A stretch of 61,196 bases of DNA, filler included. It is 5 parts of 5 records of this genome, joined end to end, with 100 filler letters (N's around TTAATTAATTAA, not from the genome) between each part and the next. Parts side by side here need not be neighbours in the genome. Positions count along the whole stretch, not along the records: positions 26,636 to 33,055 come from SRR31156797_26627; 4 more parts are not named here. One strand, given 5' to 3'. The position numbers and the translations under genes were made by a program. This document shows positions 6,455 through 53,267 of this stretch, piece after piece (position 1 is the stretch's first letter; every line of letters begins with the position of its first letter). Under the pieces are notes generated by a model. The model did no database searches and was not told where the DNA came from. It saw nothing but the letters and a program-made list of their open reading frames with translations.

Positions 6455-6463
6455 GAAAAGAAA

Positions 6464-7267
6464 ATGGTACCATCTGGGATTGTTACGCTCATCACTGACT
6501 TTGGCCTTGCCGATCCTTATGTTGGACAGCTTAAGGGCAAATTACTCAAGCGGTGGCAAGGGGCAGAAATTATTGATATCACCCATGCAATTGATCAACA
6601 TGATATCCAGGGGGCGGCAATGACGCTTTTGACCAGTTATCACCATTTTCCTGTTGGTACCGTTCACCTGACAGTGGTTGATCCGGGTGTTGGGAGTAAT
6701 CGGAAAATTCTTGCTGCCAGGAGCAATGATTTTTTCTTTATTGGTCCAGACAACGGCGTCTTTTCACCTTTAATAGAAAGAGGGCTTATTCACGACATCA
6801 GGCAGGTCTCCGGAAGCAGTGCTGCCTGCAGTGCAACTTTCCAAGGGCGAGATATAATGGCTCCGATTGCAGCAGATATTGCAAGGGGAAATCCTTTTAT
6901 TGCCTCGGGAAGGTCGGTTGAACCAGCTGATTGTATGAGCTTACCGCCTTTGAAGGTGCAGCGGACAGATGATCAATTGATCGGAGAAGTTATTCGGATT
7001 GATCATTTTGGTAATATTCGCCTTTCTATTACTTATGATGATCTACAGCAATGGTCTGTTTTTCCTGGTAATATACAGGTCCGGCTTTGTGGGGAACAGA
7101 TAGGGCCGCTGTTAAGAACCTATTCTGACTGCATCCCAGGTCAACTTTGTTTGGTTATTGATAGTGACGGCTTTTTGGAAGTCGCCGCTAATCGTGCAAA
7201 TGCCTGCAAAAAAATGGGGTGCAGACTGCAAGATACAGCAGTCGTACAACCCCGTTCTACCCCATGA
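6464..7267 (+). CDS. SAM hydroxide adenosyltransferase / chlorinase-fluorinase (DUF62) family
   Basis: TLITDFG, VVDPGVGS, GPDNG, TFQGRD, DHFGN motifs. Confidence 0.9.
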   Translation: MVPSGIVTLITDFGLADPYVGQLKGKLLKRWQGAEIIDITHAIDQHDIQGAAMTLLTSYHHFPVGTVHLTVVDPGVGSNRKILAARSNDFFFIGPDNGVFSPLIERGLIHDIRQVSGSSAACSATFQGRDIMAPIAADIARGNPFIASGRSVEPADCMSLPPLKVQRTDDQLIGEVIRIDHFGNIRLSITYDDLQQWSVFPGNIQVRLCGEQIGPLLRTYSDCIPGQLCLVIDSDGFLEVAANRANACKKMGCRLQDTAVVQPRSTP

Positions 7268-8626: not shown

Positions 8627-9463
8627 CTACATGGCATCCATCGTTTCAATAAGAGCTTTGCGCATGATACTGGGAGGTGGTTCTACCCCTGTCCAGATAC
8701 GAAACTGTTCCACACCCTGGTAAAGGAGCATGTCCAGGCCGTCAATAATTTTACAACCGCTTTCTGCGGCTTGTTTGAGCAGTGACGTTTGTAAAGGGGA
8801 ATAGACTATATCCATGACAACCTGGTAGTGGGGTAAAATTCCACCGGGCACAGGACTTCGATCACTGTCCGGGGCCATACCAACGGTGGTCGTGTTGATA
8901 AGAATATCGGCAGTAATTGTCGCGACATTGTCAAGGGGTATGGAATCACAGCCCATTTCAATTGCTAAGGCTGCTGCTTTTTCCTGGGTCCGGTTGGCTA
9001 TAGTCACTTTAGCACCGGCAGTAAGCAGGCCAAAAACAACGGCTTTGGCCGCGCCTCCTGCACCTATTACTAAAGCACTGGCACCCTTAAGACTGATAAC
9101 TTGGGAAAGTGCGCTATTGGAGCCTATCCAATCTGTATTATAACCATTACTAGTGCAGGGGCCTTCTTGATCTGGCTGACTAAAAAAGAGGGTATTAACA
9201 GCACCTATTTGGGCCGCTGTTGGGTCAATGTTATCAAGGCAGTCCATAACCGTTTCCTTAAAAGGTACTGTTATAGATGCTCCGACAAAGCCTAGTGCGC
9301 GGAGCCCGGCAATGGTTTGAGTAATATTCGTTGCCTTTATAGGTACATATGCCCCATTTATCCCTAGCTCGGCAAAAGCAGCATTGTGCATCGCAGGGCT
9401 TAAAGAATGACTGACAGGGTTGCCTATTATCGCAAAGAGCTGGGTCTTACCATTAATGTTCAT
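8627..9463 (-). CDS. aroE: Shikimate dehydrogenase
   Basis: GNPVSHSLSPAMHN, TVPFK, GAVNT, NTD, GAGGAAKA; start MNINGKT (9463). Confidence 0.95.
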   Translation of the reverse strand: MNINGKTQLFAIIGNPVSHSLSPAMHNAAFAELGINGAYVPIKATNITQTIAGLRALGFVGASITVPFKETVMDCLDNIDPTAAQIGAVNTLFFSQPDQEGPCTSNGYNTDWIGSNSALSQVISLKGASALVIGAGGAAKAVVFGLLTAGAKVTIANRTQEKAAALAIEMGCDSIPLDNVATITADILINTTTVGMAPDSDRSPVPGGILPHYQVVMDIVYSPLQTSLLKQAAESGCKIIDGLDMLLYQGVEQFRIWTGVEPPPSIMRKALIETMDAM

Positions 9464-10157
9464 TGCTTTCAAAAAGGTGAATAAGGGTATGGAATTGATC
9501 AGTTGTGAACTGACCAGGGGCTGTCGCTGAGAGATCATCAACGGCCACATAACTCATGCAGCCACCAAGATAAAGTGTCGCCAATCTGCTGATCCGACCT
9601 ACTTCACCCATGCAAAAGGTTGAAAGTTGAAAATTGTTTGCCCTAGCTATTTGTAATAGAGCGAGGACACGAACAACATCTGATGGGTCATTGGCCGTGG
9701 TGACAATTTTACCAATATCAGCGCCGCTGCCAATCATTTGGTGGAGAGTATCTTCAAGGATACCTGACGTTGCTGTTTCTGTGAAGTTATGATTGGAGAT
9801 GATAACAGCTGTTTGGCGGCCTTGTGCTGCTGAAATCACCTCGTTACGGAGATTTTTTTCGGTATTGAGTTCGATGTCAATATAGGCAGCATCTGCTGCA
9901 ATGGCATCTTTTAGTAGAGCGGTTCGATCCTTTTCACTATCAACACATTCACCGCCTTCCCAAACCGGGCGATTAGTAAAGAGTAAGGGTGTATCAGGTA
10001 AGCAGGAGATGCATCTTCCTACATCGGGATGGGTCATTAAATCAAGTCGGATCTCGAACACATCAACCTTCTCTCTGACAGGCTGTACAAGGTTGGGTAA
10101 ATCAGCAGGCTTATTTGCTGCAGTGGCGGCGCATATAATTCCTCTATTACGGTTCAC
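9453..10157 (-). CDS. aroD: Type I 3-dehydroquinate dehydratase
   Basis: EIRLD, FTNRPVWEGG, SNHNF, CMGEVGRISR, APGQ. Confidence 0.93.
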   Translation of the reverse strand: MNRNRGIICAATAANKPADLPNLVQPVREKVDVFEIRLDLMTHPDVGRCISCLPDTPLLFTNRPVWEGGECVDSEKDRTALLKDAIAADAAYIDIELNTEKNLRNEVISAAQGRQTAVIISNHNFTETATSGILEDTLHQMIGSGADIGKIVTTANDPSDVVRVLALLQIARANNFQLSTFCMGEVGRISRLATLYLGGCMSYVAVDDLSATAPGQFTTDQFHTLIHLFESNEH

Positions 10158-11101
10158 GATAAGTCCCCAGTATGAAGAGAACCAATGAGACTGGTAAGAG
10201 ATGTTTCATTCTGCTGTTCAAGAAAGGTGGTAATGCCTGAGATGATAGTATTGGCAGCACTCGGGTCGTAGAAATTAGCAGTCCCAACTTGGACAGCAGT
10301 GGCCCCGGCAATGAGAAACTCAAGAGCATCTTCAGTTGTACCTATCCCACCAATACCGATAACGGGAATAGAAACAGCATTGGCAACCTGCCAGACCATG
10401 CGCAGGGCAATGGGTTTGATTGCAGGCCCAGAAAGCCCACCAATGATATTGGCAAGGCGAGGACGGCGTTTGTTAATATCTATAGCCATACCTATGAGGG
10501 TGTTTATAAGTGAAATACCGTCAGCACCGCCAGCTTCCACGGCTTTTGCCATGGAAACAATATCAGTTACATTAGGAGAAAGTTTGACAATGACCGGAAG
10601 TGAAGAAGCTTTTTTCACTGCCTCCGTTACGGTTTGGGCCATCTCTGGAATTGTGCCGAAAGCGACGCCCCCCTTTTTTACATTGGGACAGGAGATATTG
10701 ACTTCAAGCCCGTCTATCCCTGAATGTTCAGACAACTTTTCGGCAAGATAGGCGTATTCTTCCACAGAATCGCCTAGAATATTGACCAAAACCCGACAAT
10801 TTATAGAACGTAAAAAAGGCAGTTTTTCTGTAAGAAACCGTTCTAGTCCAACATTTTCAAGCCCAATGGCATTTAACATACCGCAAGGAGTTTCAACAAT
10901 GCGTTGGGGGGGATTTCCTGCTCGTGGTTCAATGGAAATACCCTTGACCACGATGCCGCCTATCGCATCGAGATTAACAAATTGGGCAAATTCGAGACCG
11001 TACCCAAATGTGCCGGAAGCTGTCATAACGGGATTTGTTAAGGTAATCCCGCCAATATTAACAGAAAGATCAACAGTGGAAGTGTTATTTATAGGGGCCA
11101 T
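10154..11101 (-). CDS. pyrD: Dihydroorotate dehydrogenase B catalytic subunit
   Basis: ASGTFGYG, NAIGLEN, NISCPN, KLSPN, GGLSGPAIKP. Confidence 0.96.
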   Translation of the reverse strand: MAPINNTSTVDLSVNIGGITLTNPVMTASGTFGYGLEFAQFVNLDAIGGIVVKGISIEPRAGNPPQRIVETPCGMLNAIGLENVGLERFLTEKLPFLRSINCRVLVNILGDSVEEYAYLAEKLSEHSGIDGLEVNISCPNVKKGGVAFGTIPEMAQTVTEAVKKASSLPVIVKLSPNVTDIVSMAKAVEAGGADGISLINTLIGMAIDINKRRPRLANIIGGLSGPAIKPIALRMVWQVANAVSIPVIGIGGIGTTEDALEFLIAGATAVQVGTANFYDPSAANTIISGITTFLEQQNETSLTSLIGSLHTGDLS

Positions 11102-12957: not shown

Positions 12958-14130
12958 TTAGGCTTCTATTTCATGCTCAACACCAATAGCTATTTTATAG
13001 AGAATGGTGAGAATGAAAAAGCCTGTTGCCCAAATACCAATGGTTATAAATATTTCATTGGCTGTTGGGATGTACTCGACAATTTCTTCAAGTGGAGTAG
13101 GTACGAATCCACCAATTACAAACCCTATACCTTTATCAAGCCAGAAGGCTATGAAGATGGAGGCACATCCTATTCCAAGCCAAAGGTCACTGCCTTTTCT
13201 TGTTTTTGGATAACTGATTAATCCTATACCAATCAAGAACAGGATCACAAACGCCCACATGTATGGAACAAGGTTGTCATAAATATGGCCATGATGCTCG
13301 AGCCCAAAGAAAAGATATTGGAGAGTGTGCTTGTGACCAGGAATATTTGAGTAAAAGCCGACAAAAAATTCAAGACCAACAAAGAACATATTCGCAAGAG
13401 CAGCATAAATGATGATCGTAACCATTTTGTTCAATGCTTCTTTACCAGCATCAAAGTTAGCAACACGCTTGAGAATAAGAGCTATAACAACGATCAATGC
13501 AGGCCCAGCAGCAAATGCTGAAGCCAAAAACCGTGGAGCAATGATTGCTGAAAGCCAGAAATGCCTACCTGGCAGACCGCAGTACAGCATAGCTGTTACT
13601 GTGTGAATCGATATCGCAAAGGGAATAGAGAGATATACAAAAGGGTATATCCACTTAGGCGGTGCAACCTGCTTGCGTTCAGCTGTGAGAATTACCCATC
13701 CACAGAGAGCATTAAGCAGTAAGTATCCCCACAAGACACACATGTCATAAAACATCATGGAATTGGGTGATGGGTGCAGAAGGACGTTAAGCCCACGCAG
13801 CGGTTGCCCAAGGTCAGCCATGATAAACATCATACACATCAGTAGCGAAGAAATTGCGAGGAATTCGCCAAGAATGGTAATTTTACCAAATGCTTTATAG
13901 TTATGAATGTAATAAGGCAAAACAAGCATAACCCCCCCGGCAGCAACTCCGACGAGAAATGTAAACTGGGAGATATATATACCCCAAGAGACATCACGGC
14001 TCATACCTGTAAGGCCAAGTCCGTAAAAATACTGTCGAAGATAGCAGATGACGGCTATACCAATAAAGAACCCAAGAAAGGCAAGCCACATCCAGTAGTA
14101 ATTGTTTCCTTTTAGTGCTTTTTCAAACAT
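12958..14130 (-). CDS. dsrP: DsrP, NrfD-type membrane subunit
   Basis: LTGMSRDVSWGIYISQFTFLVGVAAG, DLGQP; last gene of dsrMKJOP. Confidence 0.95.
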   Translation of the reverse strand: MFEKALKGNNYYWMWLAFLGFFIGIAVICYLRQYFYGLGLTGMSRDVSWGIYISQFTFLVGVAAGGVMLVLPYYIHNYKAFGKITILGEFLAISSLLMCMMFIMADLGQPLRGLNVLLHPSPNSMMFYDMCVLWGYLLLNALCGWVILTAERKQVAPPKWIYPFVYLSIPFAISIHTVTAMLYCGLPGRHFWLSAIIAPRFLASAFAAGPALIVVIALILKRVANFDAGKEALNKMVTIIIYAALANMFFVGLEFFVGFYSNIPGHKHTLQYLFFGLEHHGHIYDNLVPYMWAFVILFLIGIGLISYPKTRKGSDLWLGIGCASIFIAFWLDKGIGFVIGGFVPTPLEEIVEYIPTANEIFITIGIWATGFFILTILYKIAIGVEHEIEA

Positions 14131-14137
14131 GGCAACC

Positions 14138-14983
14138 TCATACTATGTAAAAGACAGATGGATGGGTACCCAGCGTCGGTTTTCGCTGAATGGTGTAATT
14201 TTCTTTAAGTAACTTACGTACTTCTGAATGCGGATCATTCAGATCACCAAACACCATGGCTTTTGATTCACCACAAGCTTCTACACAGGCAGGTATCTTA
14301 CCGACACTAATTCGCTCTGCACAGAAATTACACTTTTCTACGACACCACGCATCCTTCTGGGGAAATCGTTGTTGATCTCCTTGATGAAAGGTTGCGGGT
14401 TGCGCCAGTTGAAACTTCTCATACCGTACGGGCATGCAGCCATACAGAACCGACATCCGATGCAGCGATGATAGTCCATCGCGACCAAACCGTCTTTGTT
14501 CTTAAACGTCGCCTGAGTAGGACAGGCACGAACACAAGGTGGGTTATCGCAGTGGTTGCAGAGTACAGGAACCTGATGCGATTCAGTTGTTTCATCTTTG
14601 TAAAGCTGGCTCTTTTCTGGAAAACAATTTTCATAATTGGTCATCCAGATCCACTTAATTTCATCTTTCTTTTCTGGGAATTCAGGAACATTGTGTGCCT
14701 TAATACAAGCAGACTCAGCCTTTTTCCCAAGGTTCGGGTCATTCTGAAATTTCTTTACATCAATGACCATCCCGTATCGTTTGCCGGATGTAGTAGCTTC
14801 TACTTTAGCATGGGCTGAATCCTGCTCTGCATGCGAGCCAGCAGCTACTTTTGCCGCAGTAGAAGCGCTGGCTACAGCCGGGCTTGCACCTGCAACAATT
14901 TTATCGACAACCGCGGTTCCGCCAAGGCCAGCCAGTGTTGATATCCCGGCAACCTTGAGGAAATCTCTTCTTTTTTTATCCAT
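14138..14983 (-). CDS. dsrO: DsrO, Tat-exported FeS protein
   Basis: RRDFLK Tat motif, CNHCDNPPCVRACP, CIGCRFCMAACP, KCNFC; RBS GGAGG before ATG 14983. Confidence 0.95.
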   Translation of the reverse strand: MDKKRRDFLKVAGISTLAGLGGTAVVDKIVAGASPAVASASTAAKVAAGSHAEQDSAHAKVEATTSGKRYGMVIDVKKFQNDPNLGKKAESACIKAHNVPEFPEKKDEIKWIWMTNYENCFPEKSQLYKDETTESHQVPVLCNHCDNPPCVRACPTQATFKNKDGLVAMDYHRCIGCRFCMAACPYGMRSFNWRNPQPFIKEINNDFPRRMRGVVEKCNFCAERISVGKIPACVEACGESKAMVFGDLNDPHSEVRKLLKENYTIQRKPTLGTHPSVFYIV

Positions 14984-15006
14984 CAGTATATCTCCTCCTT
15001 TGCCGT

Positions 15007-15378
15007 TCACTCAACCGGAGCTATGTGGCAGTCCCAGCAATATGGTGTAACAGAAGCATAGTCATGACAAGTGTCACAGAATTTTTTCTTACTGGTGTGA
15101 CACTCCATGCATGTAAGCATCAAGCTCTTCTGATATTCTTTACCATCAATTGTAATGGTGCCCCTATCTCCGTCTCGCAATACCTCATCTCGCCACTCAT
15201 TCAACATCTGCATATGGCCGGAGCGCATAGCTTCAGCAGAAAGGACGCAGCTTTTTGCATCCTTGGGCAACTCTGGCTTTGGTGCATTGCCAGCATCACC
15301 GTGGTTGTACCAGATGGGGATCGTGATAAACAGGACGAAGATGATCAGCCCCGGAATGATTTTACCACTGTCGTACAT
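15007..15378 (-). CDS. dsrJ: DsrJ triheme cytochrome c
   Basis: Three CxxCH motifs (CMECH, CDTCH, CWDCH). Confidence 0.95.
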   Translation of the reverse strand: MYDSGKIIPGLIIFVLFITIPIWYNHGDAGNAPKPELPKDAKSCVLSAEAMRSGHMQMLNEWRDEVLRDGDRGTITIDGKEYQKSLMLTCMECHTSKKKFCDTCHDYASVTPYCWDCHIAPVE

Positions 15379-15404
15379 TGTTATTCCTCCATTTCAACCG
15401 GGGG

Positions 15405-17033
15405 TTAGACCAAGGTCCTGAGACCTTCATCGAGTTCCTGTCGCTGTTCGCCTTCCACAACCAGAGCATTACCAACGAGCTCGCTTATACCAGCGACCTG
15501 AACTTGCGGCACCCAGTAATCACACAGTGTGGTCAGCGTAGCCCTGTCAATTGCACAAACACAACTTAGGGTGTTGACATCATGTTTTTCGTGAACATAC
15601 TTAACTGCGTTGGCTCGTGGAAGCCCAGAACGCATTCGGAGTTCCATGATCTCATCTGTGTTTAGGGCGGTTCCTGACCCACAACAAAAAGTTTTTTCGC
15701 GGATAGTATTTTCAGGCATCTCAACCCAGTCGACAACATGGTCAAGGATATATCGCGGCTCATCAAGTAGGCCCATTGCCCTTGCAGGGTTACAGGAGTC
15801 GTGGTACGTCGCTTTTAGATGGGCGTTACGACTTTTATCAAAATTGAGTTTACCGTTCTTAATAAGATCAGCGGTAAATTCTGAAATATGAACCATCTTC
15901 GTAGATGCCGCATTCTCAAATACTGTGCCGGTTATTGGAGATTTCGGTACCTCCATAAAATCAGTTGGACCATTCATGGTATCCATGTACTGATGAACGA
16001 CACGCCACATATGACCACATTCCCCGCCCAGAATCCACTTCACGCCAAGACGCTCAGCTTCCGCGTACATTTTGGCGTTGAGCTTTTTCATCATTTGGTT
16101 GGAAGTGAACAGCCCGAAGTTCCCACCTTCTGATGCATATGTGGACCATGTGTAGTCAAGTCCGATAGCTTCAAAAAGGATTAAATATCCCATGCAGGTG
16201 AAAATGCCCGGTTCAGCGAAAACATCTGCTGATGGGGTAATAAACAAGACTTCTGCGCCTTTGCGATTAAAGGTTGGATTAACCTTAATACCTGTGAGAT
16301 TTTCCACATCTTCACAAAGGAAATCAACATTGCCCTTAAATGCCTGGGGAGTTAACCCCATGTGGTTACCTGTTCTATTGGAATTAGCAACAGGTTCCAT
16401 GGCCCAGTTTATACCTATACCGACCAAGTGCAGTAATTCACGTAACATCATTGTGATTTCTGCTGTATCGATACCGTATGGGCAGAACACAGAACATCGA
16501 CGACATTCTGTACACTGGTAAGCATACATGAACCACTCTTTAAGTATGCCTGCTGTCATTTCCCGGCCACCGGCAAGTTTACCAAGAATTTTACCCGCTA
16601 AAGTAAAGTCCTGTCGATAAACCGAACGGAGCAATTCTGCCCTCATTACCGGCATATTTTTCGGATCACCGGTGCCGAGGAAAAAATGACATTTATCTGC
16701 GCAGGCACCACAGCGAACACAACAGTCCATGAAGATTTTAAGACTGCGAAACTTGTCCAGTCGGTCTGCGATTCCCTGAATGATAATGTCTTTCCAGTTT
16801 TCTGGAAGTTTCCAGTCATCGTCTTCAGGATTCCAGTCCCTCGCATTAGGGAAGCTGACACCCTTTTGACTGTCAAGATATTCTAATTTTTCGGGCTTTG
16901 TGGGGTAAGCATAGTTGCCGGGTTTAAAAACCGCAGGCACTTCCATCCAATCTTTGGTTGGAAAGGCGCCAGTCATCAGAGAGGGTCCCTCGGCAACGCT
17001 ACGTGCCAACTTATCTACCTTTACTACTGCCAT
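15405..17033 (-). CDS. dsrK: DsrK, HdrD-like FeS subunit
   Basis: CVRCGACADKC, CTECRRCSVFCP, GECGH, HDSCN, CCG domain. Confidence 0.96.
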   Translation of the reverse strand: MAVVKVDKLARSVAEGPSLMTGAFPTKDWMEVPAVFKPGNYAYPTKPEKLEYLDSQKGVSFPNARDWNPEDDDWKLPENWKDIIIQGIADRLDKFRSLKIFMDCCVRCGACADKCHFFLGTGDPKNMPVMRAELLRSVYRQDFTLAGKILGKLAGGREMTAGILKEWFMYAYQCTECRRCSVFCPYGIDTAEITMMLRELLHLVGIGINWAMEPVANSNRTGNHMGLTPQAFKGNVDFLCEDVENLTGIKVNPTFNRKGAEVLFITPSADVFAEPGIFTCMGYLILFEAIGLDYTWSTYASEGGNFGLFTSNQMMKKLNAKMYAEAERLGVKWILGGECGHMWRVVHQYMDTMNGPTDFMEVPKSPITGTVFENAASTKMVHISEFTADLIKNGKLNFDKSRNAHLKATYHDSCNPARAMGLLDEPRYILDHVVDWVEMPENTIREKTFCCGSGTALNTDEIMELRMRSGLPRANAVKYVHEKHDVNTLSCVCAIDRATLTTLCDYWVPQVQVAGISELVGNALVVEGEQRQELDEGLRTLV

Positions 17034-17066
17034 TGCGTTATCCTTTTACTCTTGTTTTTGTCGAGC

Positions 17067-18107
17067 TTACTCGGCCTCTTCCTTAGTTTCAGCCTCAGGT
17101 TTTGGCGGCAATTCTTTCTCGACAGGGATTCCCTGTTCAACCATATCTTCCCTAAATTCATCCTCATAAGCAGCATAAGAGTGCGGCTTGATTTCAGGAT
17201 TCCAAGGGTTAATATGACGCACCATACGAGAATTGTTAGCCATATTCCTGGTTGGGCTCATGAAAACACCGCCCATATGCATTAATTTGCTAAATGGAAA
17301 GTAGGCGAGCAGTGCACATACCAAAAAGAGGTGTGCATAAAAAATCGCGCTGATTTTTGCTGTTATGGTTGGTTGAAAGGTGACGAGACCAACTGCCAGC
17401 TCTTTAATGGCATTGATGTCAACATCGGTCCGCAGGAAAAATCGCATCAGGATACCGGTGGTCGCAACCCCAAGGATCAGAAAAAGAGGGAAGTAATCGT
17501 TGGCAAGTGAGAGGTAGCGGACATGCGGATTAACCAGTCGTCTCCCAAACAGAAAGAGAATACCCAATACCAATGTAATATCTGTCATATACATGGTAGG
17601 AGCACCAATCTGAAACAAAGAATCCCCAACTTCCAAAAAGGAAACAAAGAAAGGAACTGGTTCCATAAACAAGCGCATATGGCGGATAACTACCACCAAA
17701 AAGCTGTAATGGAAAAGAATACCAAATAGCCATAGCCATTTGCTTGATTCGTAGGTCAGCTTCGGTCCATCATAGACAGTAGCTTTTGTGTTACGCCATA
17801 AGGATCGGAAAAGAAATATTTCCAGAAACATCCTTGCCACAACCTGAGAGGTGTTGTTGGGCGCTTCCAACTTGTCCTGCTTGATCCAAGGCAGAGAATA
17901 TCCCTGGCCACAGGTAGTTGGAATTTTAAAGGGAACAGGTGATTTTGCCCAGTGGAATATCCTGTAACAAAATCCTCCGAGAAACAGCGCCATGGCCAGA
18001 TAGGGGATCACAACACCGAAAAAGTATTGCATTCCTGGTATCTGTACACCTATAAGCGCTATCAGCACCAAGGCAACTACTGCCGCGAACGGGAAGGCGT
18101 ACTTCAT
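17067..18107 (-). CDS. dsrM: DsrM, NarI-like cytochrome b
   Basis: SPVPFKIPTTCGQ, YFPFSKLMHMGGVFMSPTRN. Confidence 0.96.
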   Translation of the reverse strand: MKYAFPFAAVVALVLIALIGVQIPGMQYFFGVVIPYLAMALFLGGFCYRIFHWAKSPVPFKIPTTCGQGYSLPWIKQDKLEAPNNTSQVVARMFLEIFLFRSLWRNTKATVYDGPKLTYESSKWLWLFGILFHYSFLVVVIRHMRLFMEPVPFFVSFLEVGDSLFQIGAPTMYMTDITLVLGILFLFGRRLVNPHVRYLSLANDYFPLFLILGVATTGILMRFFLRTDVDINAIKELAVGLVTFQPTITAKISAIFYAHLFLVCALLAYFPFSKLMHMGGVFMSPTRNMANNSRMVRHINPWNPEIKPHSYAAYEDEFREDMVEQGIPVEKELPPKPEAETKEEAE

Positions 18108-21262: not shown

Positions 21263-21886
21263 TTATAATGGACTGACAACCTTTGATGCATCAACCATTG
21301 TGCTCATAATATCATACATATTCGATATCTGGCCGACTTTTATCGCTGATTTGAGTTTATAAAAATCAAGACAGGTCCCGCAGACCAAAATTTCTACCCC
21401 CGACTGCTGGAGTTCTTTGAGTGCTTCCAGTGCACCCGATTGCTCAACGACCAGCTTTACCCCACTATTATAAAAAAGAATCTTGTCCGGTTGCGGGGTA
21501 ACTTCTTTAATTGTTTGTATAAAAGTCTGGAGTAAAGCCCAGCCGAGGTCGTCGCTGCCACGTCCCATCGTATTTGCAGATATAACGTAAATAAGGGAGC
21601 CTGTCCCTTCTTGAGGTAGTTCGCAACTATACACATCACTCTCGATGGTTGCTGCTGTCGGAGTGGAGTCATCGCGTTGTATTAGAATTCGGTAGGTTCC
21701 GTCCGGCATTTCTGTTGCTGAGACTTCACACCCTTGGTTCCTTCCAAAACGTGTAACGTTGTTTTTGGAAGCCTCATTGTCAACAGTGACACTGATAAGA
21801 GTATGTCCTTGTTCCAGTGCATCCTTGGTTCTGAGAACAGGTTTAGGGCAGGGAAGTCCAATGCAATCAAGGGATATCGGTTCCAT
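21263..21886 (-). CDS. yedF: Sulfurtransferase-like selenium metabolism protein YedF (TusA + DsrE-like)
   Basis: LDCIGLPCPKPV TusA motif; MGRGSDDLG, FYNSGV, CGTCLDFY. Confidence 0.88.
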   Translation of the reverse strand: MEPISLDCIGLPCPKPVLRTKDALEQGHTLISVTVDNEASKNNVTRFGRNQGCEVSATEMPDGTYRILIQRDDSTPTAATIESDVYSCELPQEGTGSLIYVISANTMGRGSDDLGWALLQTFIQTIKEVTPQPDKILFYNSGVKLVVEQSGALEALKELQQSGVEILVCGTCLDFYKLKSAIKVGQISNMYDIMSTMVDASKVVSPL

Positions 21887-21999
21887 GGAGGGCAATTATA
21901 AGTTAGAGGTAGCTAAATAAAGAATAAGTAAAAAAATAAAAAAAGACCTGTTTTTACCTGTTTGTTAATAAAATAACCATATTTGCAGGCTGTGCAACG

Positions 22000-25712: not shown

Positions 25713-26535
25713 TTACGAATCTTTTTTCTGTTCTTCAAATGCTTTGATTAAATCATCACTGATGCTCTTTGGCACCTGCTTATAGGTCGAGAATTCCATT
25801 GTGAATTCTGCCTTACCCTGGGTAAGAGAGCGTAGGGTGGTTGAGTAGCCGAACATTTCAGAGAGCGGAAGCTCTGCTTCGACCACAGTGTAGTTCCCTT
25901 CCTCAAACGTACCGATGATCACACCCCGACGCTGGTTAAGGCTACCCATAACTGCGCCCTGGAATTCTGACGGACCTTCGACAGCCACTTTCATGATGGG
26001 TTCCATGATAACAGGGTTAGCCTTGGCGTAACCTTGTTTGAAACCACCGATGGACGCCATCTGGAAGGCAACATCAGAAGAGTCGACCGCATGAAAACTA
26101 CCGTCATTGATAACCGCTTTGATTCCGGTAATTGGGGACCCTGTTAATGTACCCTTAGCGAGTGATTTTTTAAAGCCTTTATCACAGGAGCTGATAAATT
26201 CTCGGGGAATAACACCACCGACAATGTCGTCAACGAATTCGTAGTCGCTTTCTTCAATGGGCTCGAGGTAACCTGCAACTCGACCAAACTGACCGGAGCC
26301 ACCGGTCTGCTTTTTGTGGGTGTAGTCGAATTCCGCCCGTTGGAGAATGGTCTCTCTGTAGGCTACCTGCGGCGCACCTACCTCTACTTCGGCCTGATAC
26401 TCGCGCTTCATGCGCTCGATGTAGACCTCGAGATGAAGCTCACCCATTCCAGAAACAATCGTTTCATTTGTTTCGTGGTCAACATAGGTCTTGAAAGTAG
26501 GGTCCTCTTTTGTGAACCGGTTGAGGGCCTTGGAC
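25713..26535 (-). CDS. fusA: Elongation factor G, 3' part, truncated by contig end
   Basis: [50 protein letters not shown]. Confidence 0.97.
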
Positions 26536-26635
26536 NNNNNNNNNNNNNNNNNNNNNNNNNNNNNNNNNNNNNNNNNNNNTTAATTAATTAANNNNNNNNN
26601 NNNNNNNNNNNNNNNNNNNNNNNNNNNNNNNNNNN
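26536..26635. other. Artificial contig linker
   Basis: N-run + TTAATTAATTAA (stops in six frames) + N-run. Confidence 0.98.
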
Positions 26636-26709: not shown

Positions 26710-26750
26710 AAAATCCCCGGCAGCCATAAGGTTGCCGGGGATTTTCTTTT
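26710..26750. terminator. Bidirectional terminator between groEL and lipA
   Basis: AAAATCCCCGGCAGCC-ATAA-GGTTGCCGGGGATTTT. Confidence 0.85.
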
Positions 26751-26776: not shown

Positions 26777-27652
26777 CTATTTATTCAGCCCCGCAAAAAG
26801 GGCCGCATTGTAGGAGGAACGTACAAAGGGCGCACTGTACATATGCTGAACGCCTTTCTCTTTGCCATAGCAGGCATACTCTTCAAAAACATCAGGATGG
26901 ACATAGCGAAGCACTTCGGGATGCTTAAGTGAAGGTCGCATGTACTGCCCGATGGTCACAATGTCACAACCGATGTTCGCAAGGTCGTCGATCACCCCTT
27001 GCACTTCCTCATCATTTTCACCCAACCCGACCATGAGCCCGGACTTGGCAACGGCCCCGGCAGACTTGACGCGCTCAATTAGCTCAAGACTCTGCTTGTA
27101 ATCAGCCTGCGGCCGGATATCCTTGTAATGAATAGGAGGAGTTTCCACATTGTGGTTGATGATATCCGGGTGGGCTTCAATGACCAAATTCAACGCATTT
27201 TCATCACCCTGAAAATCGGGAATAAGCACTTCAATCGATGATTCAGGTAACTGCCCGCGAACAGCACGGATGGTGGCTGAAAAATGAGCAGCACCGCCGT
27301 CAGCAAGATCATCACGGGTGACCGAGGTAATGACCACATGCTTAAGCCCCAGACGCTTGGCAGCTTCAGCGACCCGGGACGGTTCCGTAAGTTCAAGGGG
27401 CCGAATATCACCGCTCTCAATGTTGCAAAATGCACAGTTGCGGGTGCAGGTGTCACCCATAATCAGGAAAGTCGCCGTGTATTCTGAAAAACATTCAAAC
27501 ATATTTGGACACTTGGCACTCTGGCAAACGGTGTTCAAACTGAGATCTTTGATCAGTTCCCGGGTAGCGCTATAGGTCTTGTTACAAGGAATCTTGACCC
27601 GGAGCCACGGCGGAATGCGCAGATATGCTTTGGAAGGATCTTTGGAACACAT
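26777..27652 (-). CDS. lipA: Lipoyl synthase
   Basis: CQSAKCPNMFEC and CTRNCAFC clusters, HNVET, RSSY; GGAGG RBS before ATG 27652. Confidence 0.96.
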   Translation of the reverse strand: MCSKDPSKAYLRIPPWLRVKIPCNKTYSATRELIKDLSLNTVCQSAKCPNMFECFSEYTATFLIMGDTCTRNCAFCNIESGDIRPLELTEPSRVAEAAKRLGLKHVVITSVTRDDLADGGAAHFSATIRAVRGQLPESSIEVLIPDFQGDENALNLVIEAHPDIINHNVETPPIHYKDIRPQADYKQSLELIERVKSAGAVAKSGLMVGLGENDEEVQGVIDDLANIGCDIVTIGQYMRPSLKHPEVLRYVHPDVFEEYACYGKEKGVQHMYSAPFVRSSYNAALFAGLNK

Positions 27653-27764
27653 AAGGCTGCCTCCTGATATTTTTAGAGCGGCCCGCACAATTGCAGGCCG
27701 CTCTTAGGTATAAGCTCCGTCAAAGGAGTGGAATATCCCGGATATGAGGTCCGGAACAATTGGC

Positions 27765-28154
27765 TTACTTGATTTTTGCTTCGTAATCTTCGTTGTTCAG
27801 CAACTGGCTCTTGTCAGCGTCACCGTCGAGAGTGATGCGCAGCATCCAACCTTCTTTGTAAGGAGAGGTATTTACATCTTCAGGCGCATCTTCAAGTCCT
27901 TCATTAATCTCCTCAACAGTGCCGGCAATGGGCATGTACAGGCTGCTCACAGCCTTGATGGACTCAACTGTACCGAACTCTTCACCAGCGTCAAAATGAT
28001 CACCTGCGGAAGGAAGGTCAACAAAGGCAACTTCGCCGAGCTGATCCTGAGCAAAGTCAGTGATGCCGACAACTGCGGTGTTGTCATCATTGATAAGAAC
28101 CCAAGTATGCTCGGAATGGTAAAGAACGTCTGCGGGAAAGGTAAGTTCACTCAT
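27765..28154 (-). CDS. gcvH: Glycine-cleavage H-like lipoyl carrier protein
   Basis: HTWV, GITDFAQDQLG, VESIKA (lipoyl-Lys), SPYKEGW. Confidence 0.95.
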   Translation of the reverse strand: MSELTFPADVLYHSEHTWVLINDDNTAVVGITDFAQDQLGEVAFVDLPSAGDHFDAGEEFGTVESIKAVSSLYMPIAGTVEEINEGLEDAPEDVNTSPYKEGWMLRITLDGDADKSQLLNNEDYEAKIK

Positions 28155-28198
28155 GATTATCTCCAAAAAGTTTATTGTTCTGAAAAATTAAACCGGAA

Positions 28199-29623
28199 TC
28201 AGCAGCCGCGAAGCCATGCTTCACAACACTCATAAAGACCTTCAGCAAGCGTCGGGTGGGCGTGGATGGTATGGGCCACATCAGCAGCAGTAAGCCCCTT
28301 TTTAATAGCAAGGGCAGCTTCAGCAATGAGGTCGGTAGCATGAGCTCCGGCAATGTGAGCACCAAGGATCTTGCCACTTTCTTTTTCGCAGATGATCTTG
28401 AACATGCCTGCGAGTTCGCCCATTGCCTGAGCCTTACCCAGCTCGCGGAACTGGAAGACCTGTGAACGGACTTCAATACCCTTGGCATTTGCTTCTTCCT
28501 CGGAAAGCCCCACGGTTCCGATCTCAGGGGAGGTGAATATTCCGGAAGGAATCACAGAATAATCAAGGGAACGCTCTTTATCGAGACAGTTGTCCACAGC
28601 ACAAAGTCCCTCGGCAGAAGCAACATGGGCCAGCATCACCCGGGAAGGTCCGAGAATATCACCGATAGCGTAGATTCCTTCAGCGGAAGTGCGCATGTTC
28701 TGATCTGCTTTGATCCAGCCGCGTTCATCGGTCTCAACCCCGGCTTCAGCCAGCTTCAAACCATCTGTGTTAGGGGTACGCCCAACAGCAACCAGCACCA
28801 CGTCGGCTTCAATGGTAGTGTCGTCGCCTTTTGCGTTTTCAACAAAAGGAGAAGGCCCGAGTACGCACTGAACTTTACCATCCACAACTTCAGCGCTCTT
28901 CACAGTCTTGGCCAGCTGCACCTTAATGCGGTGTTTCTTGGCTTCACGCTGCAGGAGCTTGCTCATGTCCTTATCCACAGAGGGAACAGGCAGAAGGCGG
29001 TCCATGCCTTCAACGATGGTCACTTCAGAACCGAAAGCACGGTAGATGAAGGCCAGTTCACAACCGATTACTCCACCACCGACAATAACCATTTTTGCAG
29101 GGACATAATCCAGATCAAGAGCATCTTCACTATTGATGATATGCTTGTGGTCCACAGGAAGGGAAGGTAGATTGAGAATGCTGGAACCGGTAGCGATGAT
29201 AACTTTGTCGCTCTTGATTTCCTCGATGCCCTCTTCAGTGTGGACGAGAACTATACGTTCAGCTGCCAACTCAGCAGAACCTCGCACAACACGGATATTC
29301 AAAGAGGAACAGGTCTTCTCAAGACCGCCGCAAAGCACCTTGCGGACCCTTTCCTTGCGGGCCACAACAGCTTCCATATCAGCCTTGAAGCTTACACCCG
29401 CTTCCCCGCTCTCAACTGCAATACCGAATGTATTGAGACTTCCTGCAGTCTCAAGGGCTTCTGCAGAAGATTTGAGGGTCTTGGTGGGAATGCAACCGGT
29501 ATTCAGGCAGGTTCCCCCAATATCCGCTTTTTCAACCAGAGTAACTTCAACTCCCCGGCGGGCAGCTTCAAAAGCAGCGATATGACCGCCAGGACCTGAT
29601 CCTATTATGGTAATGGATGACAT
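28199..29623 (-). CDS. lpdA: Dihydrolipoamide dehydrogenase
   Basis: GSGPGG, GGTCLNTGCIPTK, GGGVIGCE, HAHPTLAE. Confidence 0.95.
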   Translation of the reverse strand: MSSITIIGSGPGGHIAAFEAARRGVEVTLVEKADIGGTCLNTGCIPTKTLKSSAEALETAGSLNTFGIAVESGEAGVSFKADMEAVVARKERVRKVLCGGLEKTCSSLNIRVVRGSAELAAERIVLVHTEEGIEEIKSDKVIIATGSSILNLPSLPVDHKHIINSEDALDLDYVPAKMVIVGGGVIGCELAFIYRAFGSEVTIVEGMDRLLPVPSVDKDMSKLLQREAKKHRIKVQLAKTVKSAEVVDGKVQCVLGPSPFVENAKGDDTTIEADVVLVAVGRTPNTDGLKLAEAGVETDERGWIKADQNMRTSAEGIYAIGDILGPSRVMLAHVASAEGLCAVDNCLDKERSLDYSVIPSGIFTSPEIGTVGLSEEEANAKGIEVRSQVFQFRELGKAQAMGELAGMFKIICEKESGKILGAHIAGAHATDLIAEAALAIKKGLTAADVAHTIHAHPTLAEGLYECCEAWLRGC

Positions 29624-29647
29624 GCTTAGCTCCTGTTGTGAAAATTA

Positions 29648-30076
29648 TTACAATTCTTCGAGATGAAGGTTGTAGGTCATGGGGAATGCTTCATGGAGGG
29701 AAGCGGTGACCAGACAGCCCTTACGCATAATTTTTTCAACACGATCAAAAATAAAACCGTAATCCTCATCCATGTGAACGGTCACATCGAGAGTGATACC
29801 GGTAACACGAGCACGCTTCTTTTCATCCACACCGGTTTCGAGGGTAGCGGTTCCGGTAATGCGTTCGTATTCTGCTCCACGGGTCTGCAGAGCTTTCCCC
29901 AGAGCACCGCAGAAGCAGTACAGAGCGGAAGAAGCAAGCAGCTGCTTAGCTGTGCCGCCACGCTGATCTTCCGGAATGCCATTGTGATCGATAACGATTT
30001 CACCGAGAACCTTGGAATTTGTATCTATAACCTGCTTATCGCCTGCGCGATCATATGAAACAGTGAGTTGAGCCAT
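29648..30076 (-). CDS. OsmC/Ohr-like family protein
   Basis: 142 aa; QLLASSALYCFCG helix and second Cys in KGCLVTASL match the two-Cys OsmC layout. Confidence 0.75.
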   Translation of the reverse strand: MAQLTVSYDRAGDKQVIDTNSKVLGEIVIDHNGIPEDQRGGTAKQLLASSALYCFCGALGKALQTRGAEYERITGTATLETGVDEKKRARVTGITLDVTVHMDEDYGFIFDRVEKIMRKGCLVTASLHEAFPMTYNLHLEEL

Positions 30077-30126
30077 TTTATATTCTCCTTTGTGATTTTT
30101 CAGACAAACTTATTTGTCGCCCCAGA

Positions 30127-30143
30127 AGCTCTATTCGTGCCAA
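30127..30143 (-). promoter_or_regulatory. Sigma-54 (-24/-12) promoter of the osmC-lpdA-gcvH-lipA operon
   Basis: Minus strand TTGGCACGAATAGAGCT: TGGCACG with exact GG-N10-GC spacing, about 50 bp before the ATG. Confidence 0.75.
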
Positions 30144-30228
30144 CACAAACAATCCACATGTTTTCAGGTAGTTACAAAAAGAAAATCATCCTTTACTACA
30201 GAAAACGCAGCTACAGCCACTCCATTTA

Positions 30229-30410
30229 CGACAAATATGTCGCATTGATTCATCAAACAATCTGACTATTGCCTTAAATTCAACAACATCTCGAAAACGA
30301 CAATTATGTCGTGCGTCAACGTATAAATTCTGTATTTTTTCCTTTCCCCCTGTAAAACCGCAATCTATACTATCAAAGTATACTTTCTAGACACAGTGAC
30401 ACATTTGTCG
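30229..30410. promoter_or_regulatory. Three palindromic sites, putative enhancer-binding-protein UAS
   Basis: CGACAAATATGTCG (30229-30242), CGACAATTATGTCG (30298-30311), TGACACATTTGTCG (30397-30410). Confidence 0.65.
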
Positions 30411-30440: not shown

Positions 30441-30463
30441 AAAAAAGGCCGCATAAGCGGCCT
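30441..30463 (-). terminator. Intrinsic terminator after the TPR gene
   Basis: Minus strand AGGCCGC-TTAT-GCGGCCTTTTTT. Confidence 0.75.
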
Positions 30464-30494
30464 CATAAAAAACTGGGATCAAAATAAGTTTATC

Positions 30495-31487
30495 TTAAAA
30501 ATCGAGCTTGATTGCTTTGGAAGCTGCAGGCTTTTTGGCAGGAGCTTTCTTCTTGCCAGCCTTCTCTTTTTTACCACCTGAAGAACCACCATCGAGATTA
30601 AATGACATACTCTCTTTTTTTCCTTTGCCACCACCGGCAGGCGACTTTGATTTCATATCACTGGCAGTAGCTCCAGGAGTGTAACCGCGTCCAAAAATTT
30701 TGGGACCCAACTTATCTGAAATTTTCTTGGCCTCGCGATTAAGGGGATTCGCTTTGAGCGCAGCGGCAGCAGCATCGTAAGCTTCTGTATACATACGCTT
30801 GGCAAGAAACAGTTTGGCCTGACGGATATAAATACTTTCATTAGCACCGAAACGGCGCACAATATCCTTAATGACGGCAAGAGCCTTATCCTGCTCAGTC
30901 ATCATTTCATAAGCCAAGAGAAGCGAAATATAAGGCCTACTGTCAGAAGGTGTCTTCTCAATTGCCCGTTCAAGATATTCTACGCCATCAGCAGGAAAAC
31001 CGGATTTAACAAGCCTGCTACCAACATCCTGCAGCAATCCCCTTTCCTCTGGAAAAGCCTCGGTAATTTTGCGGAAATACTTTTTGGCTTCCTTGACGTT
31101 CTTTTCCATTAAAAACTTCTGACCGGCCAATATAAATTTATCAATCTGATTTTTCTGTTTGCGGACCTTCTCAACAGCAGCCTTTTCAAGAGCATTTTTG
31201 ATGGTATTATGAATTTTCATCAACAAGGCAGCCTGTTTTTTCTCCTGCCCTTTGACATATTTCAAACCACGGGGCAAAACACGCTTGAGTTCTTCCATAG
31301 CCATAAGCTGCCGGAAGACCTCATCAATGAGAATCCCAATTTCAAATTTCTCACGCCCGAAAACCTGACTTGATGCAAGCTCATCAAGGGACAGGCTTAG
31401 CGCATGTAAACAACGCATGTAATCCTTCCGTTGTCCGTAGGACTTTGCACGGGCAATATTTTCTTTAATGCTCTTTGGCGAACTCAT
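30495..31487 (-). CDS. Tetratricopeptide-repeat protein with Lys-rich tail
   Basis: Helical TPR-like repeats (GVEYLERAIEKTP, AAALKANP). Confidence 0.75.
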   Translation of the reverse strand: MSSPKSIKENIARAKSYGQRKDYMRCLHALSLSLDELASSQVFGREKFEIGILIDEVFRQLMAMEELKRVLPRGLKYVKGQEKKQAALLMKIHNTIKNALEKAAVEKVRKQKNQIDKFILAGQKFLMEKNVKEAKKYFRKITEAFPEERGLLQDVGSRLVKSGFPADGVEYLERAIEKTPSDSRPYISLLLAYEMMTEQDKALAVIKDIVRRFGANESIYIRQAKLFLAKRMYTEAYDAAAAALKANPLNREAKKISDKLGPKIFGRGYTPGATASDMKSKSPAGGGKGKKESMSFNLDGGSSGGKKEKAGKKKAPAKKPAASKAIKLDF

Positions 31488-33055: not shown

Positions 33056-33155
33056 NNNNNNNNNNNNNNNNNNNNNNNNNNNNNNNNNNNNNNNNNNNNT
33101 TAATTAATTAANNNNNNNNNNNNNNNNNNNNNNNNNNNNNNNNNNNNNNNNNNNN
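33056..33155. other. Artificial contig linker
   Basis: N-run + TTAATTAATTAA + N-run. Confidence 0.98.
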
Positions 33156-44864: not shown

Positions 44865-44964
44865 NNNNNNNNNNNNNNNNNNNNNNNNNNNNNNNNNNNN
44901 NNNNNNNNTTAATTAATTAANNNNNNNNNNNNNNNNNNNNNNNNNNNNNNNNNNNNNNNNNNNN
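44865..44964. other. Artificial contig linker
   Basis: N-run + TTAATTAATTAA + N-run. Confidence 0.98.
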
Positions 44965-53167: not shown

Positions 53168-53267
53168 NNNNNNNNNNNNNNNNNNNNNNNNNNNNNNNNN
53201 NNNNNNNNNNNTTAATTAATTAANNNNNNNNNNNNNNNNNNNNNNNNNNNNNNNNNNNNNNNNNNNN
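53168..53267. other. Artificial contig linker
   Basis: N-run + TTAATTAATTAA + N-run. Confidence 0.98.

Follow-up and report, generated by a model that had tools for sequence, protein, structure and literature searches.

What does a lipoyl carrier do beside an OsmC-like gene, together with a dihydrolipoyl dehydrogenase and a lipoyl synthase of its own? Lipoyl proteins are usually seen as parts of 2-oxoacid dehydrogenases and of the glycine cleavage system. In the 61,196-nucleotide (nt) stretch of DNA analysed here (the window), four co-oriented open reading frames (ORFs) on the minus strand between 26710 and 30464 encode an OsmC-like thiol protein, a dihydrolipoyl dehydrogenase (Lpd), a paralogue of the glycine cleavage H protein (GcvH) and a lipoyl synthase (LipA). 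Gene content, motifs, paralogy of the lipoyl proteins, linkage and shared regulatory sites in relatives, and the replacement of a catalytic Glu by Lys in the OsmC-like protein all bear on the question. They suggest an inducible reductase in which electrons would pass from NADH through Lpd and lipoyl-GcvH to the OsmC-like protein, serving the pathway of a transporter/hydrolase regulon. We prefer this answer tentatively, with a little less than even confidence. The operon and its boundaries are made up as follows.

29648-30076, minus strand: OsmC-like thiol protein, 142 amino acids (aa); Pfam OsmC, 31.5 bits against a cut-off of 27.5
28199-29623, minus strand: Lpd (dihydrolipoyl dehydrogenase), 474 aa; TIGR01350, 474.6 bits against 408.8
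27765-28154, minus strand, alternative TTG start at 28166: GcvH paralogue (lipoyl carrier); TIGR00527, 146 bits against 115.85
26777-27652, minus strand, alternative GTG start at 27688: LipA (lipoyl synthase); TIGR00510, 346.6 bits against 310.25
30464-30445, minus strand: terminator-like hairpin closing the upstream TPR gene (30495-31487); 8-bp stem with 6 GC pairs, then a T-run
26710-26745, no strand assigned: bidirectional terminator hairpin downstream of lipA; 16-bp stem between an A-run and a T-run, the T-run coming after the stem on the minus strand

The ATG starts of GcvH (28154) and LipA (27652) are the likelier ones. Both are preceded by purine-rich ribosome-binding sequences, with AGGAGG upstream of the LipA start. 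All cofactor and catalytic motifs are intact. Lpd has the redox disulfide C39LNTGC44 and the His-Glu dyad motif HAHPTLAE at 454. GcvH carries its lipoyl Lys in an ESIK motif, at position 71 of a 133-aa ORF, and this Lys is invariant in 20/20 OsmC-linked GcvH proteins. LipA has CX4CX5C at 55, CX3CX2C at 81 and RSSY at 290. The nearest database protein to the OsmC-like protein (98% identity) is an OsmC family protein of an unclassified Maridesulfovibrio. A sequence-only reading of this DNA had described a four-gene unit bounded by terminators on both sides and lacking a decarboxylase and an aminomethyltransferase. That description stands, since both hairpins were confirmed and the 61-kb window yielded no gene for a P or T protein. 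The hairpin at 30445-30464 is predicted to insulate the operon against read-through from the TPR gene. One detail required correction. The OsmC-like protein was called a two-Cys protein, and it has three: C54 and C121 at the peroxidatic and resolving positions, and an extra C56 that completes a CFC motif.

Are these genes spare parts of the glycine cleavage system? Genome-level statements were drawn from five relatives reached through their loci: Maridesulfovibrio sp. (G001), which is the closest with 86% nucleotide identity over 6.4 kb, Maridesulfovibrio sp. FT414 (G002), Halodesulfovibrio aestuarii (G003), Desulfovibrio desulfuricans (G004) and Bilophila wadsworthia (G005). GcvH searches gave 2, 2, 2, 4 and 4 matches, respectively, and a separate gcvH-gcvPA-gcvPB cluster and gcvT are present in 5/5. 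The possibility that the operon holds the genome's only gcvH and lpdA, in the service of a P and T protein encoded elsewhere, is therefore contradicted in each of the relatives searched. In G001 the canonical cluster, which has its own Lpd-like gene, lies at 2.311-2.316 Mb and the OsmC-linked set at 2.350-2.353 Mb, about 35-40 kb apart. The canonical GcvH of G001 is 47% identical to the GcvH of the window. In a 52-row maximum-likelihood tree the four P-protein-linked GcvH proteins form a supported clade (98/92), and the OsmC-linked GcvH proteins fall outside it. A search of G001-G003 for an E2 core (PF00198) gave no match, which leaves the two GcvH proteins as the only lipoyl proteins found in these genomes. 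A housekeeping lipB-lipA pair is present in G001 in addition to the operon lipA, and in H. aestuarii LipB is also encoded within the operon. On this comparison the operon LipA appears to be a second copy in the lineage, and the OsmC-linked unit appears to be a relay separate from glycine cleavage, not spare parts of it.

Other Lpd and GcvH genes of these genomes were also recorded. The Lpd-like gene at the canonical cluster (G001:C1:2315009-2316346, with equivalents in G002 and G003) scores 369-397 bits, under the TIGR01350 cut-off of 408.8, which the OsmC-linked Lpd passes. Several of the four GcvH genes in each of G004 and G005 are paired with an Lpd or Lpd-like gene, and one Lpd-GcvH pair of G004 lies inside an E2/LipB-LipA/LplA cluster. 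Lpd-GcvH pairs outside glycine cleavage are thus common in the Desulfovibrionaceae. The match in G004 to the OsmC-linked Lpd of D. desulfuricans SFAD67 (G004:C1:1148731-1150143) is reported with one in-frame TAG in its open frame, which may or may not fall inside the gene.

Conservation of the gene order was surveyed at 64 loci encoding an OsmC-like relative. These came from a scan of one genome per species and are all labelled as Desulfovibrionaceae or unclassified. Linkage to Lpd and GcvH was evaluable in the 46 loci with at least 2400 nt downstream, and linkage to LipA in the 42 with at least 4000 nt. Lpd and GcvH genes lie directly 3' of the OsmC-like gene, co-oriented with it, in 36/46 loci, and GcvH only in 3/46. 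LipA follows in 7/42 loci and in L007, all of them from Maridesulfovibrio or H. aestuarii. The proposed linkage is therefore conserved as OsmC-Lpd-GcvH, while its LipA member is confined to these two lineages. The theme recurs, in different gene orders, at 26 metagenome loci of distant relatives, five of which (L099, L105, L106, L107 and L109) have OsmC-Lpd-GcvH or GcvH-OsmC-Lpd. Since only 37 of the 201 Desulfovibrionaceae genomes sampled hold an OsmC-like match (E ≤ 1e-15), the module is accessory.

Some of the metagenome loci have further genes in the neighbourhood. In L107 (758-9102), and also in L106 and L109, GcvH-OsmC-Lpd is followed by a 93-aa ORF and a pyridoxal phosphate-dependent (PALP) enzyme, with a PF00884 sulfatase upstream. 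In L096 (6001-7703) the order is OsmC, a 104-aa ORF and PALP. Such neighbourhoods represent another sulfur-flavoured context.

How is the operon controlled? The following elements lie upstream of the OsmC-like gene.

30142-30127, minus strand: sigma-54-type -24/-12 promoter TGGCACGAATAGAGCT (GG-N10-GC), 66 nt before the OsmC-like start
30229-30242, no strand assigned: perfect palindrome CGACAAATATGTCG, presumed activator site, starting 87 nt upstream of the -24 element
30298-30311, no strand assigned: perfect palindrome CGACAATTATGTCG, presumed activator site
30397-30410, no strand assigned: distal copy of the palindrome CGACA-N4-TGTCG with 1 mismatch, presumed PAS/sigma-54 activator site

The copy CGACAATTATGTCG is 69 nt from the next copy, the same spacing as in the palindrome pairs of G001 (L085: 2911/2980 and 12319/12387). 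Upstream regions were compared at 62 loci; L036 and L064 were left out because they have too little upstream sequence. A -24/-12 match (at least 9/11 positions) lies 55-110 nt before the start in 28/62 loci. The palindrome occurs within 400 nt upstream of the OsmC-like gene in 37/62, compared with 0/62 control stretches inside coding DNA, and both elements are present in 26/62. An enhancer-binding protein with PAS_3, Sigma54_activat and HTH_8 domains is encoded divergently from or adjacent to the OsmC-like gene in 35/64 loci, representing most genera. The sigma-54-type promoter proposed from the window sequence is thus upheld by its conserved position, the conserved palindrome and the activator encoded nearby in relatives.

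In G001 the activator orthologue, 86% identical to the activator of Maridesulfovibrio sp. FT414, lies 655 kb from the OsmC operon. Palindrome pairs and sigma-54 elements precede a BCCT-enzyme operon and an EamA-YitT operon, which are also 655 kb from the OsmC operon. The first of these begins with genes for a BCCT transporter, an alkaline-phosphatase-superfamily enzyme and DsrH-, DsrE- and DsrF-like proteins, and continues with a single-Cys OsmC paralogue, a 193-aa protein, an EamA transporter, a small winged-helix protein and the activator. At L022 and L051 the alkaline-phosphatase-superfamily gene, a gene for a 190-aa protein and the OsmC-like gene lie in a row behind a single sigma-54 promoter; at L022, but not at L051, the Lpd and GcvH genes come immediately after the OsmC-like gene. 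Across the 64 loci the alkaline-phosphatase-superfamily enzyme occurs in 36, the 190-aa protein in 36, the BCCT transporter in 24 and EamA in 21. In the 201-genome sample the OsmC-like protein is present in 37 genomes and the alkaline-phosphatase-superfamily enzyme in 35; 32 have both, 3 have the enzyme only and 161 have neither. These results do not agree with the earlier description of the unit as complete and stand-alone. Its palindrome and promoter type are common to the BCCT, alkaline-phosphatase-superfamily, 190-aa and EamA operons, which are adjacent or co-operonic in most genera. The OsmC operon appears to be one member of a sigma-54/PAS-activator regulon, in which the activator presumably binds the palindrome.

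A methyl-accepting chemotaxis protein with a dCache domain is encoded inside the cluster of H. aestuarii (L008, 5217-7403, plus strand), directly upstream of the OsmC-like gene. Its position hints at possible chemotaxis towards the regulon substrate.

Two of the partner proteins were analysed for family and fold. The alkaline-phosphatase-superfamily enzyme (630 aa) has a full set of invariant Asp, Thr and His residues and an intact metal site. These residues are typical of nucleotide-pyrophosphatase-type enzymes. Its top solved relative by sequence is phosphonoacetate hydrolase, a weak match (E 1.8e-5). The protein of about 190 aa (L085 = G001:C1:3002000-3015000, 6119-6700, minus strand) is always encoded after the 630-aa enzyme. 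It and its 16 homologues have an invariant C-terminal PW[DE]KHDCA (17/17), in which the penultimate residue is Cys. The 190-aa protein has no family match, and a PDB sequence search returned nothing below E 0.37. Its predicted core is weakly sulfatase-like or alkaline-phosphatase-like (TM about 0.5). ESM Atlas gave only generic names for both proteins. The flexible Cys tail is reminiscent of redox or sulfur-carrying tails, as in DsrC and in phosphoadenosine phosphosulfate (PAPS) reductase. BCCT substrates are typically quaternary-ammonium or sulfonium compounds.

DsrH-, DsrE- and DsrF-like genes and a second OsmC paralogue were found in L085 (6813-8301, minus strand) and in metagenome loci L101 and L103 (about 9430-10925). 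The second paralogue is 32% identical to the OsmC-like protein and retains the first Cys only. The DsrE/F/H-like genes were considered as a core of the system and rejected, as they are absent from 64/64 genome loci and were found only in G001 and in L101/L103.

Is the OsmC-like protein a peroxidase? An OsmC/Ohr fold was predicted by AlphaFold2 (pLDDT 93.3). Foldseek gave 58 PDB matches to the model at E ≤ 1e-3, and the top-ranked among the matches listed are OsmC/Ohr-family structures, with top TM-scores of 0.76 (2ONF) and 0.74 (2EGT). When a profile of 21 relatives was compared with the PDB, the closest solved relative by sequence was E. coli OsmC (E 1.3e-6). C54 and C121 align onto both of its catalytic Cys residues, Cys59 and Cys125 in the E. 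coli numbering. Both are invariant in 21/21 close relatives and are kept in 98 and 84, respectively, of 100 distant representatives. In the motif R39-G-G-T-A-K44, Lys44 replaces the catalytic Glu. This Lys, ten residues before the first Cys, is also invariant in 21/21 close relatives, and in the alignment it falls on the first Glu of the NPEEL motif in 1QWI and 1UKK (E. coli and Thermus OsmC). Among 100 distant full-length representatives the position is most often R (23), S (19), K (13) or A (12), with E in 8. R39 is invariant in the 21 relatives, the profile alignment places it 5 residues off the Arg of E. coli OsmC, and several basic residues of the protein are invariant. Ohr is described, in the portion of the source available, as having a conserved Arg and Glu in the active site (Glu51 and Arg19 in Xylella Ohr).

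Profile searches separate the protein from the canonical enzymes. It scored 34 bits on TIGR03562, the NCBIfam OsmC peroxiredoxin subfamily, against a cut-off of 85.8. The Ohr model was not matched, and only the broad Pfam OsmC domain was passed. The subfamily is small, with 209 matches at E ≤ 1e-3 among 1.84 billion representatives. Canonical GTNPEEL...CF...CPV OsmC proteins surface only at the weak end of this search, and the subfamily has its own motif, R-G-G-x-A-[KR]-x-L-L ... G-C-L-[VI]. These comparisons indicate that the OsmC-like protein belongs to a small separate OsmC subfamily and is not a canonical peroxidase.

Together the regulon and the altered active site lead to the reading that we prefer. 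The PAS activator, encoded elsewhere in the genome in the lineage of the window, would recognise CGACA-N4-TGTCG and turn the regulon on, and the inducer would probably be an imported choline-type compound. Upon induction the GcvH paralogue would be lipoylated by the operon's own LipA. NADH would reduce Lpd, Lpd would reduce the lipoyl arm of the dedicated GcvH paralogue, and the lipoyl arm would reduce the C54/C121 pair of the OsmC-like protein. The OsmC-like protein could then resolve an intermediate that the alkaline-phosphatase-superfamily enzyme and the 190-aa protein had formed on a thiol. Most simply, its oxidant would be not free peroxide but an intermediate carried by the C-terminal Cys of the 190-aa protein.

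The alternative that survives best is a self-sufficient lipoyl-dependent peroxidase, acting on H2O2, organic hydroperoxides or peroxynitrite in the oxidative-stress defence of an anaerobe. We consider it somewhat unlikely, though a serious competitor. The fold, the alignment of both Cys residues in the top PDB sequence match and the invariant R39 are what a peroxidase would show; R39, however, is offset from the catalytic Arg of E. coli OsmC. The peroxide substrates favoured by the sequence-only reading are made less probable by the invariant Lys in place of the catalytic Glu, by the low score on the NCBI OsmC model and by the lack of an Ohr model match. Tight linkage to Lpd and GcvH would suit a peroxidase, and there are precedents in partly accessible sources: Ohr and OsmC proteins are recycled by lipoyl systems, the Trichomonas H and L proteins are coupled to OsmC, and GcvH_1 of Hyphomicrobium denitrificans is 'probably' a donor. 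In several lineages, however, the OsmC-like gene forms one operon with the alkaline-phosphatase-superfamily enzyme and no Lpd or GcvH is nearby. Moreover, the sigma-54/PAS control common to the BCCT transporter, the enzyme, the exporters and the H. aestuarii chemoreceptor has the look of substrate-induced metabolism, not of a peroxide regulon.

Several observations weigh against a pathway role for the relay. The canonical Cys positions, the lipoyl-recycling precedent and the close linkage to Lpd and GcvH would be just as expected of a plain peroxidase. The YhfA branch of the Ohr/OsmC family is described, in the part of the source available, as keeping the Cys residues while lacking Arg and Glu, with no known activity. 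Since YhfA-type proteins also lack these residues, the change from Glu to Lys points to no new substrate. Lpd and GcvH are not beside the OsmC-like gene in 7/46 loci, and 5 of the 37 genomes with the OsmC-like gene lack the alkaline-phosphatase-superfamily enzyme. The genomes are related and have gene content in common through ancestry, so the co-occurrence counts make the cases look more independent than they are. The window contains 4 palindromes compared with 1.36 expected, and 5/100 shuffles reach 4. The -24/-12 pattern occurs at least once in 44/100 shuffles of the window and is not significant alone. As the window counts by themselves are weak, the regulatory case depends on the relatives. 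The activator relative and the other regulon partners were not found in the window, so that the promoter and palindromes alone place this operon in the regulon. Finally, the single expression result noted concerns Ddes_0153, an 'OsmC family protein' of D. desulfuricans 27774 and a possible orthologue, which is reported in a partly available source to be down 1.63 log2 with nitric oxide.

A choline-type substrate for the regulon is suggested by neighbouring genes. In L037 the cluster abuts the choline trimethylamine (TMA)-lyase CutC (1622 bits against 1050), its activase and shell proteins, and CutC and CutD of this locus are both above the NCBI cut-offs. CutC is at most 8 kb away in 4/64 loci; in G003 and G004 the distance is about 12-15 kb. 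Among the 201 sampled genomes, CutC scored above the cut-off in 18/35 that have the alkaline-phosphatase-superfamily enzyme and in 13/166 that lack it. In 8 of those 18 genomes CutC and the cluster enzyme are on the same contig, separated by at most 25 kb. The OsmC-linked set in relatives appears to be part of an uncharacterised gene system linked to the uptake and breakdown of choline-like compounds.

We wondered whether the regulon could be an as yet undescribed route for the uptake of a choline ester by sulfite-respiring Desulfovibrionaceae, with reductive release of sulfite. Choline-O-sulfate would fit best; the identity of the ester is a guess, and this specific scheme is quite unlikely to be right as it stands. 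The BCCT transporter would import the ester. The alkaline-phosphatase-superfamily enzyme would move the acid group onto the Cys of KHDCA, giving S-sulfocysteine as in PAPS and adenosine phosphosulfate (APS) reductases. With lipoyl-GcvH, Lpd and NADH recharging it, the OsmC-like dithiol would free sulfite for DsrAB, and choline would pass to the neighbouring choline TMA-lyase or be exported. The BCCT transporter, the sulfatase-like folds, the true PF00884 sulfatase in the L107 version and the CutC linkage are consistent with this scheme. So are the Cys tail of the 190-aa protein and, in the OsmC-like protein, the substitution of Lys for Glu and the invariant basic residues. B. wadsworthia carries the system, and no AprA over the cut-off was found in its genome; the scheme would suit a sulfite respirer of this kind. 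The 'choline sulfate medium' of PMC4045070 is choline plus sulfate, not the ester. If the scheme were true, ATP-dependent sulfate activation would be bypassed, and the lipoyl H-protein and the OsmC fold would have a new metabolic role.

Electrons might also flow in the reverse direction, from a pathway intermediate such as protein-bound sulfur, which would be oxidised, to the OsmC-like protein, lipoyl-GcvH, Lpd and NAD+. Lpd is reversible, as established by its enzymology, and the sequences give no indication of direction. Lipoate-binding GcvH-like proteins that accompany sulfur-oxidising complexes are described in partly available sources, and the scheme resembles what those sources propose for the lipoate-binding proteins of the sulfur-oxidising sHdr system. 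None of the neighbourhoods examined, however, contained an Hdr-like complex or any other oxidising complex. The DsrE/F/H-like genes and the single-Cys OsmC paralogue in the partner operon of G001 and in L101/L103 would suit sulfur oxidation, but the DsrE/F/H-like genes have no counterpart at the 64 genome loci. We judge the reverse relay very unlikely.

It is highly improbable that the operon encodes ordinary H and L proteins of glycine cleavage or of a reductive glycine pathway, serving a distant P and T with OsmC and LipA as passengers, because the gcvH that accompanies gcvPA and gcvPB is a separate gene in all five genomes, the OsmC-linked GcvH is of a different clade and P and T genes never appear among its conserved neighbours, which are instead the OsmC-like gene, the activator and the genes of the transporter and enzyme, even though GcvH and Lpd both pass the NCBI equivalog cut-offs and the canonical-cluster Lpd-like gene of G001-G003 is just under its cut-off, so that the operon Lpd could in principle also serve glycine cleavage.

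How does the preferred relay, from NADH to the OsmC-like protein, compare with systems already described? The Ohr/OsmC peroxidases (E. coli OsmC, 1QWI/1NYE; Xylella Ohr with Lpd and lipoylated SucB) are alike in fold, in the two Cys positions and in the expected recycling by a lipoyl group kept reduced through Lpd and NADH. They differ from the protein studied here, which has an invariant Lys for Glu, an Arg shifted in the alignment and an extra Cys (CxC), and which failed the NCBI OsmC model. The predicted reductant is here a dedicated GcvH paralogue rather than an E2 subunit, and the operon belongs to a transporter/hydrolase regulon under sigma-54 and PAS-activator control. The YhfA subfamily, as described in its partly available source, is alike in keeping both Cys residues, in lacking the peroxidase catalytic residues and in having no known function. 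By profile search the subfamily described here appears to be a separate small group with its own motif.

Closer parallels combine an H protein with OsmC. In the hydrogenosomes of Trichomonas vaginalis, OsmC is partnered by H and L proteins from a glycine decarboxylase complex that is incomplete (Nyvltova et al. 2016). According to the portion of that report available, this system resembles the present one in that an anaerobe couples H and L to an OsmC-family protein in the absence of P and T. It differs in being eukaryotic, organellar and a reported peroxide detoxifier, whereas the present set is a bacterial operon with LipA; the OsmC-like protein probably belongs to a different subfamily from the Trichomonas OsmC. 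In H. denitrificans, GcvH_1 (Hden_1299) and OsmC (Hden_1301) form a pair for which electron donation to OsmC was suggested (bioRxiv 10.64898/2026.10.01.755906). There too a GcvH-like paralogue lies next to an OsmC gene and the classical GcvH is separate. The organism, however, is an aerobic alphaproteobacterium, the pair is mentioned in passing, and the available part of the preprint makes no mention of an Lpd-LipA operon, of control by sigma-54 or of transporter and hydrolase partners. The sHdr-LbpA system, again from partly available sources, is alike in having a GcvH-like lipoyl carrier outside glycine cleavage, encoded with dedicated lipoate-assembly genes, and DsrE-family proteins stand alongside in some relatives. 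It uses LbpA with sLpl/LipS1/LipS2, whereas the carrier here is a canonical-scoring GcvH with a canonical LipA; there is no Hdr-like complex here, and the host is a sulfate or sulfite reducer.

The principle that Lpd and a lipoyl protein can reduce an Ohr/OsmC-family protein is therefore known already. No description of the operon, the OsmC subfamily, the activator motif or the regulon was found in the literature searched, supplements excluded. A text search of the D. vulgaris sigma-54 regulome paper and of the Bilophila transposon study found no mention of the operon. The sequence-only reading knew of no characterisation of such an operon. This stands for the operon itself; a bacterial pair of GcvH-like and OsmC proteins is already in print, in the part of the H. 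denitrificans preprint available. Should the pathway reading prove right, the regulon around the operon may itself be newer.

In the proposed reading, anaerobes that lack E2 would keep a second, inducible GcvH/Lpd/LipA set only for a thiol protein of the OsmC fold, and a function would be assigned to an OsmC subfamily without the peroxidase Glu. The regulon is conserved and unstudied. Its carriers are Desulfovibrionaceae of the sea and the gut, among them Bilophila, Mailhella and species like D. desulfuricans, and it is tied both physically and phyletically to choline TMA-lyase. Its substrate, once found, could reveal a new input to trimethylamine and sulfide production in the gut and the sea. 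The CGACA-N4-TGTCG motif with its sigma-54 element offers a direct experimental handle.

Elsewhere in the window, dsrMKJOP lies at 12958-18107 on the minus strand, and its DsrP, DsrO, DsrK and DsrM pass NCBI equivalog cut-offs. The presence of this cluster confirms that the host reduces sulfate or sulfite. A YedF-type sulfurtransferase-like selenium-metabolism protein is encoded at 21263-21895 on the minus strand (TIGR03527, 211 bits against 110). The N runs at 26536-26635, 33056-33155, 44865-44964 and 53168-53267 are four pairs of 44-base runs. The first pair cuts an elongation factor G gene, whose readable part (25713-26447) encodes the C-terminal 244 aa.

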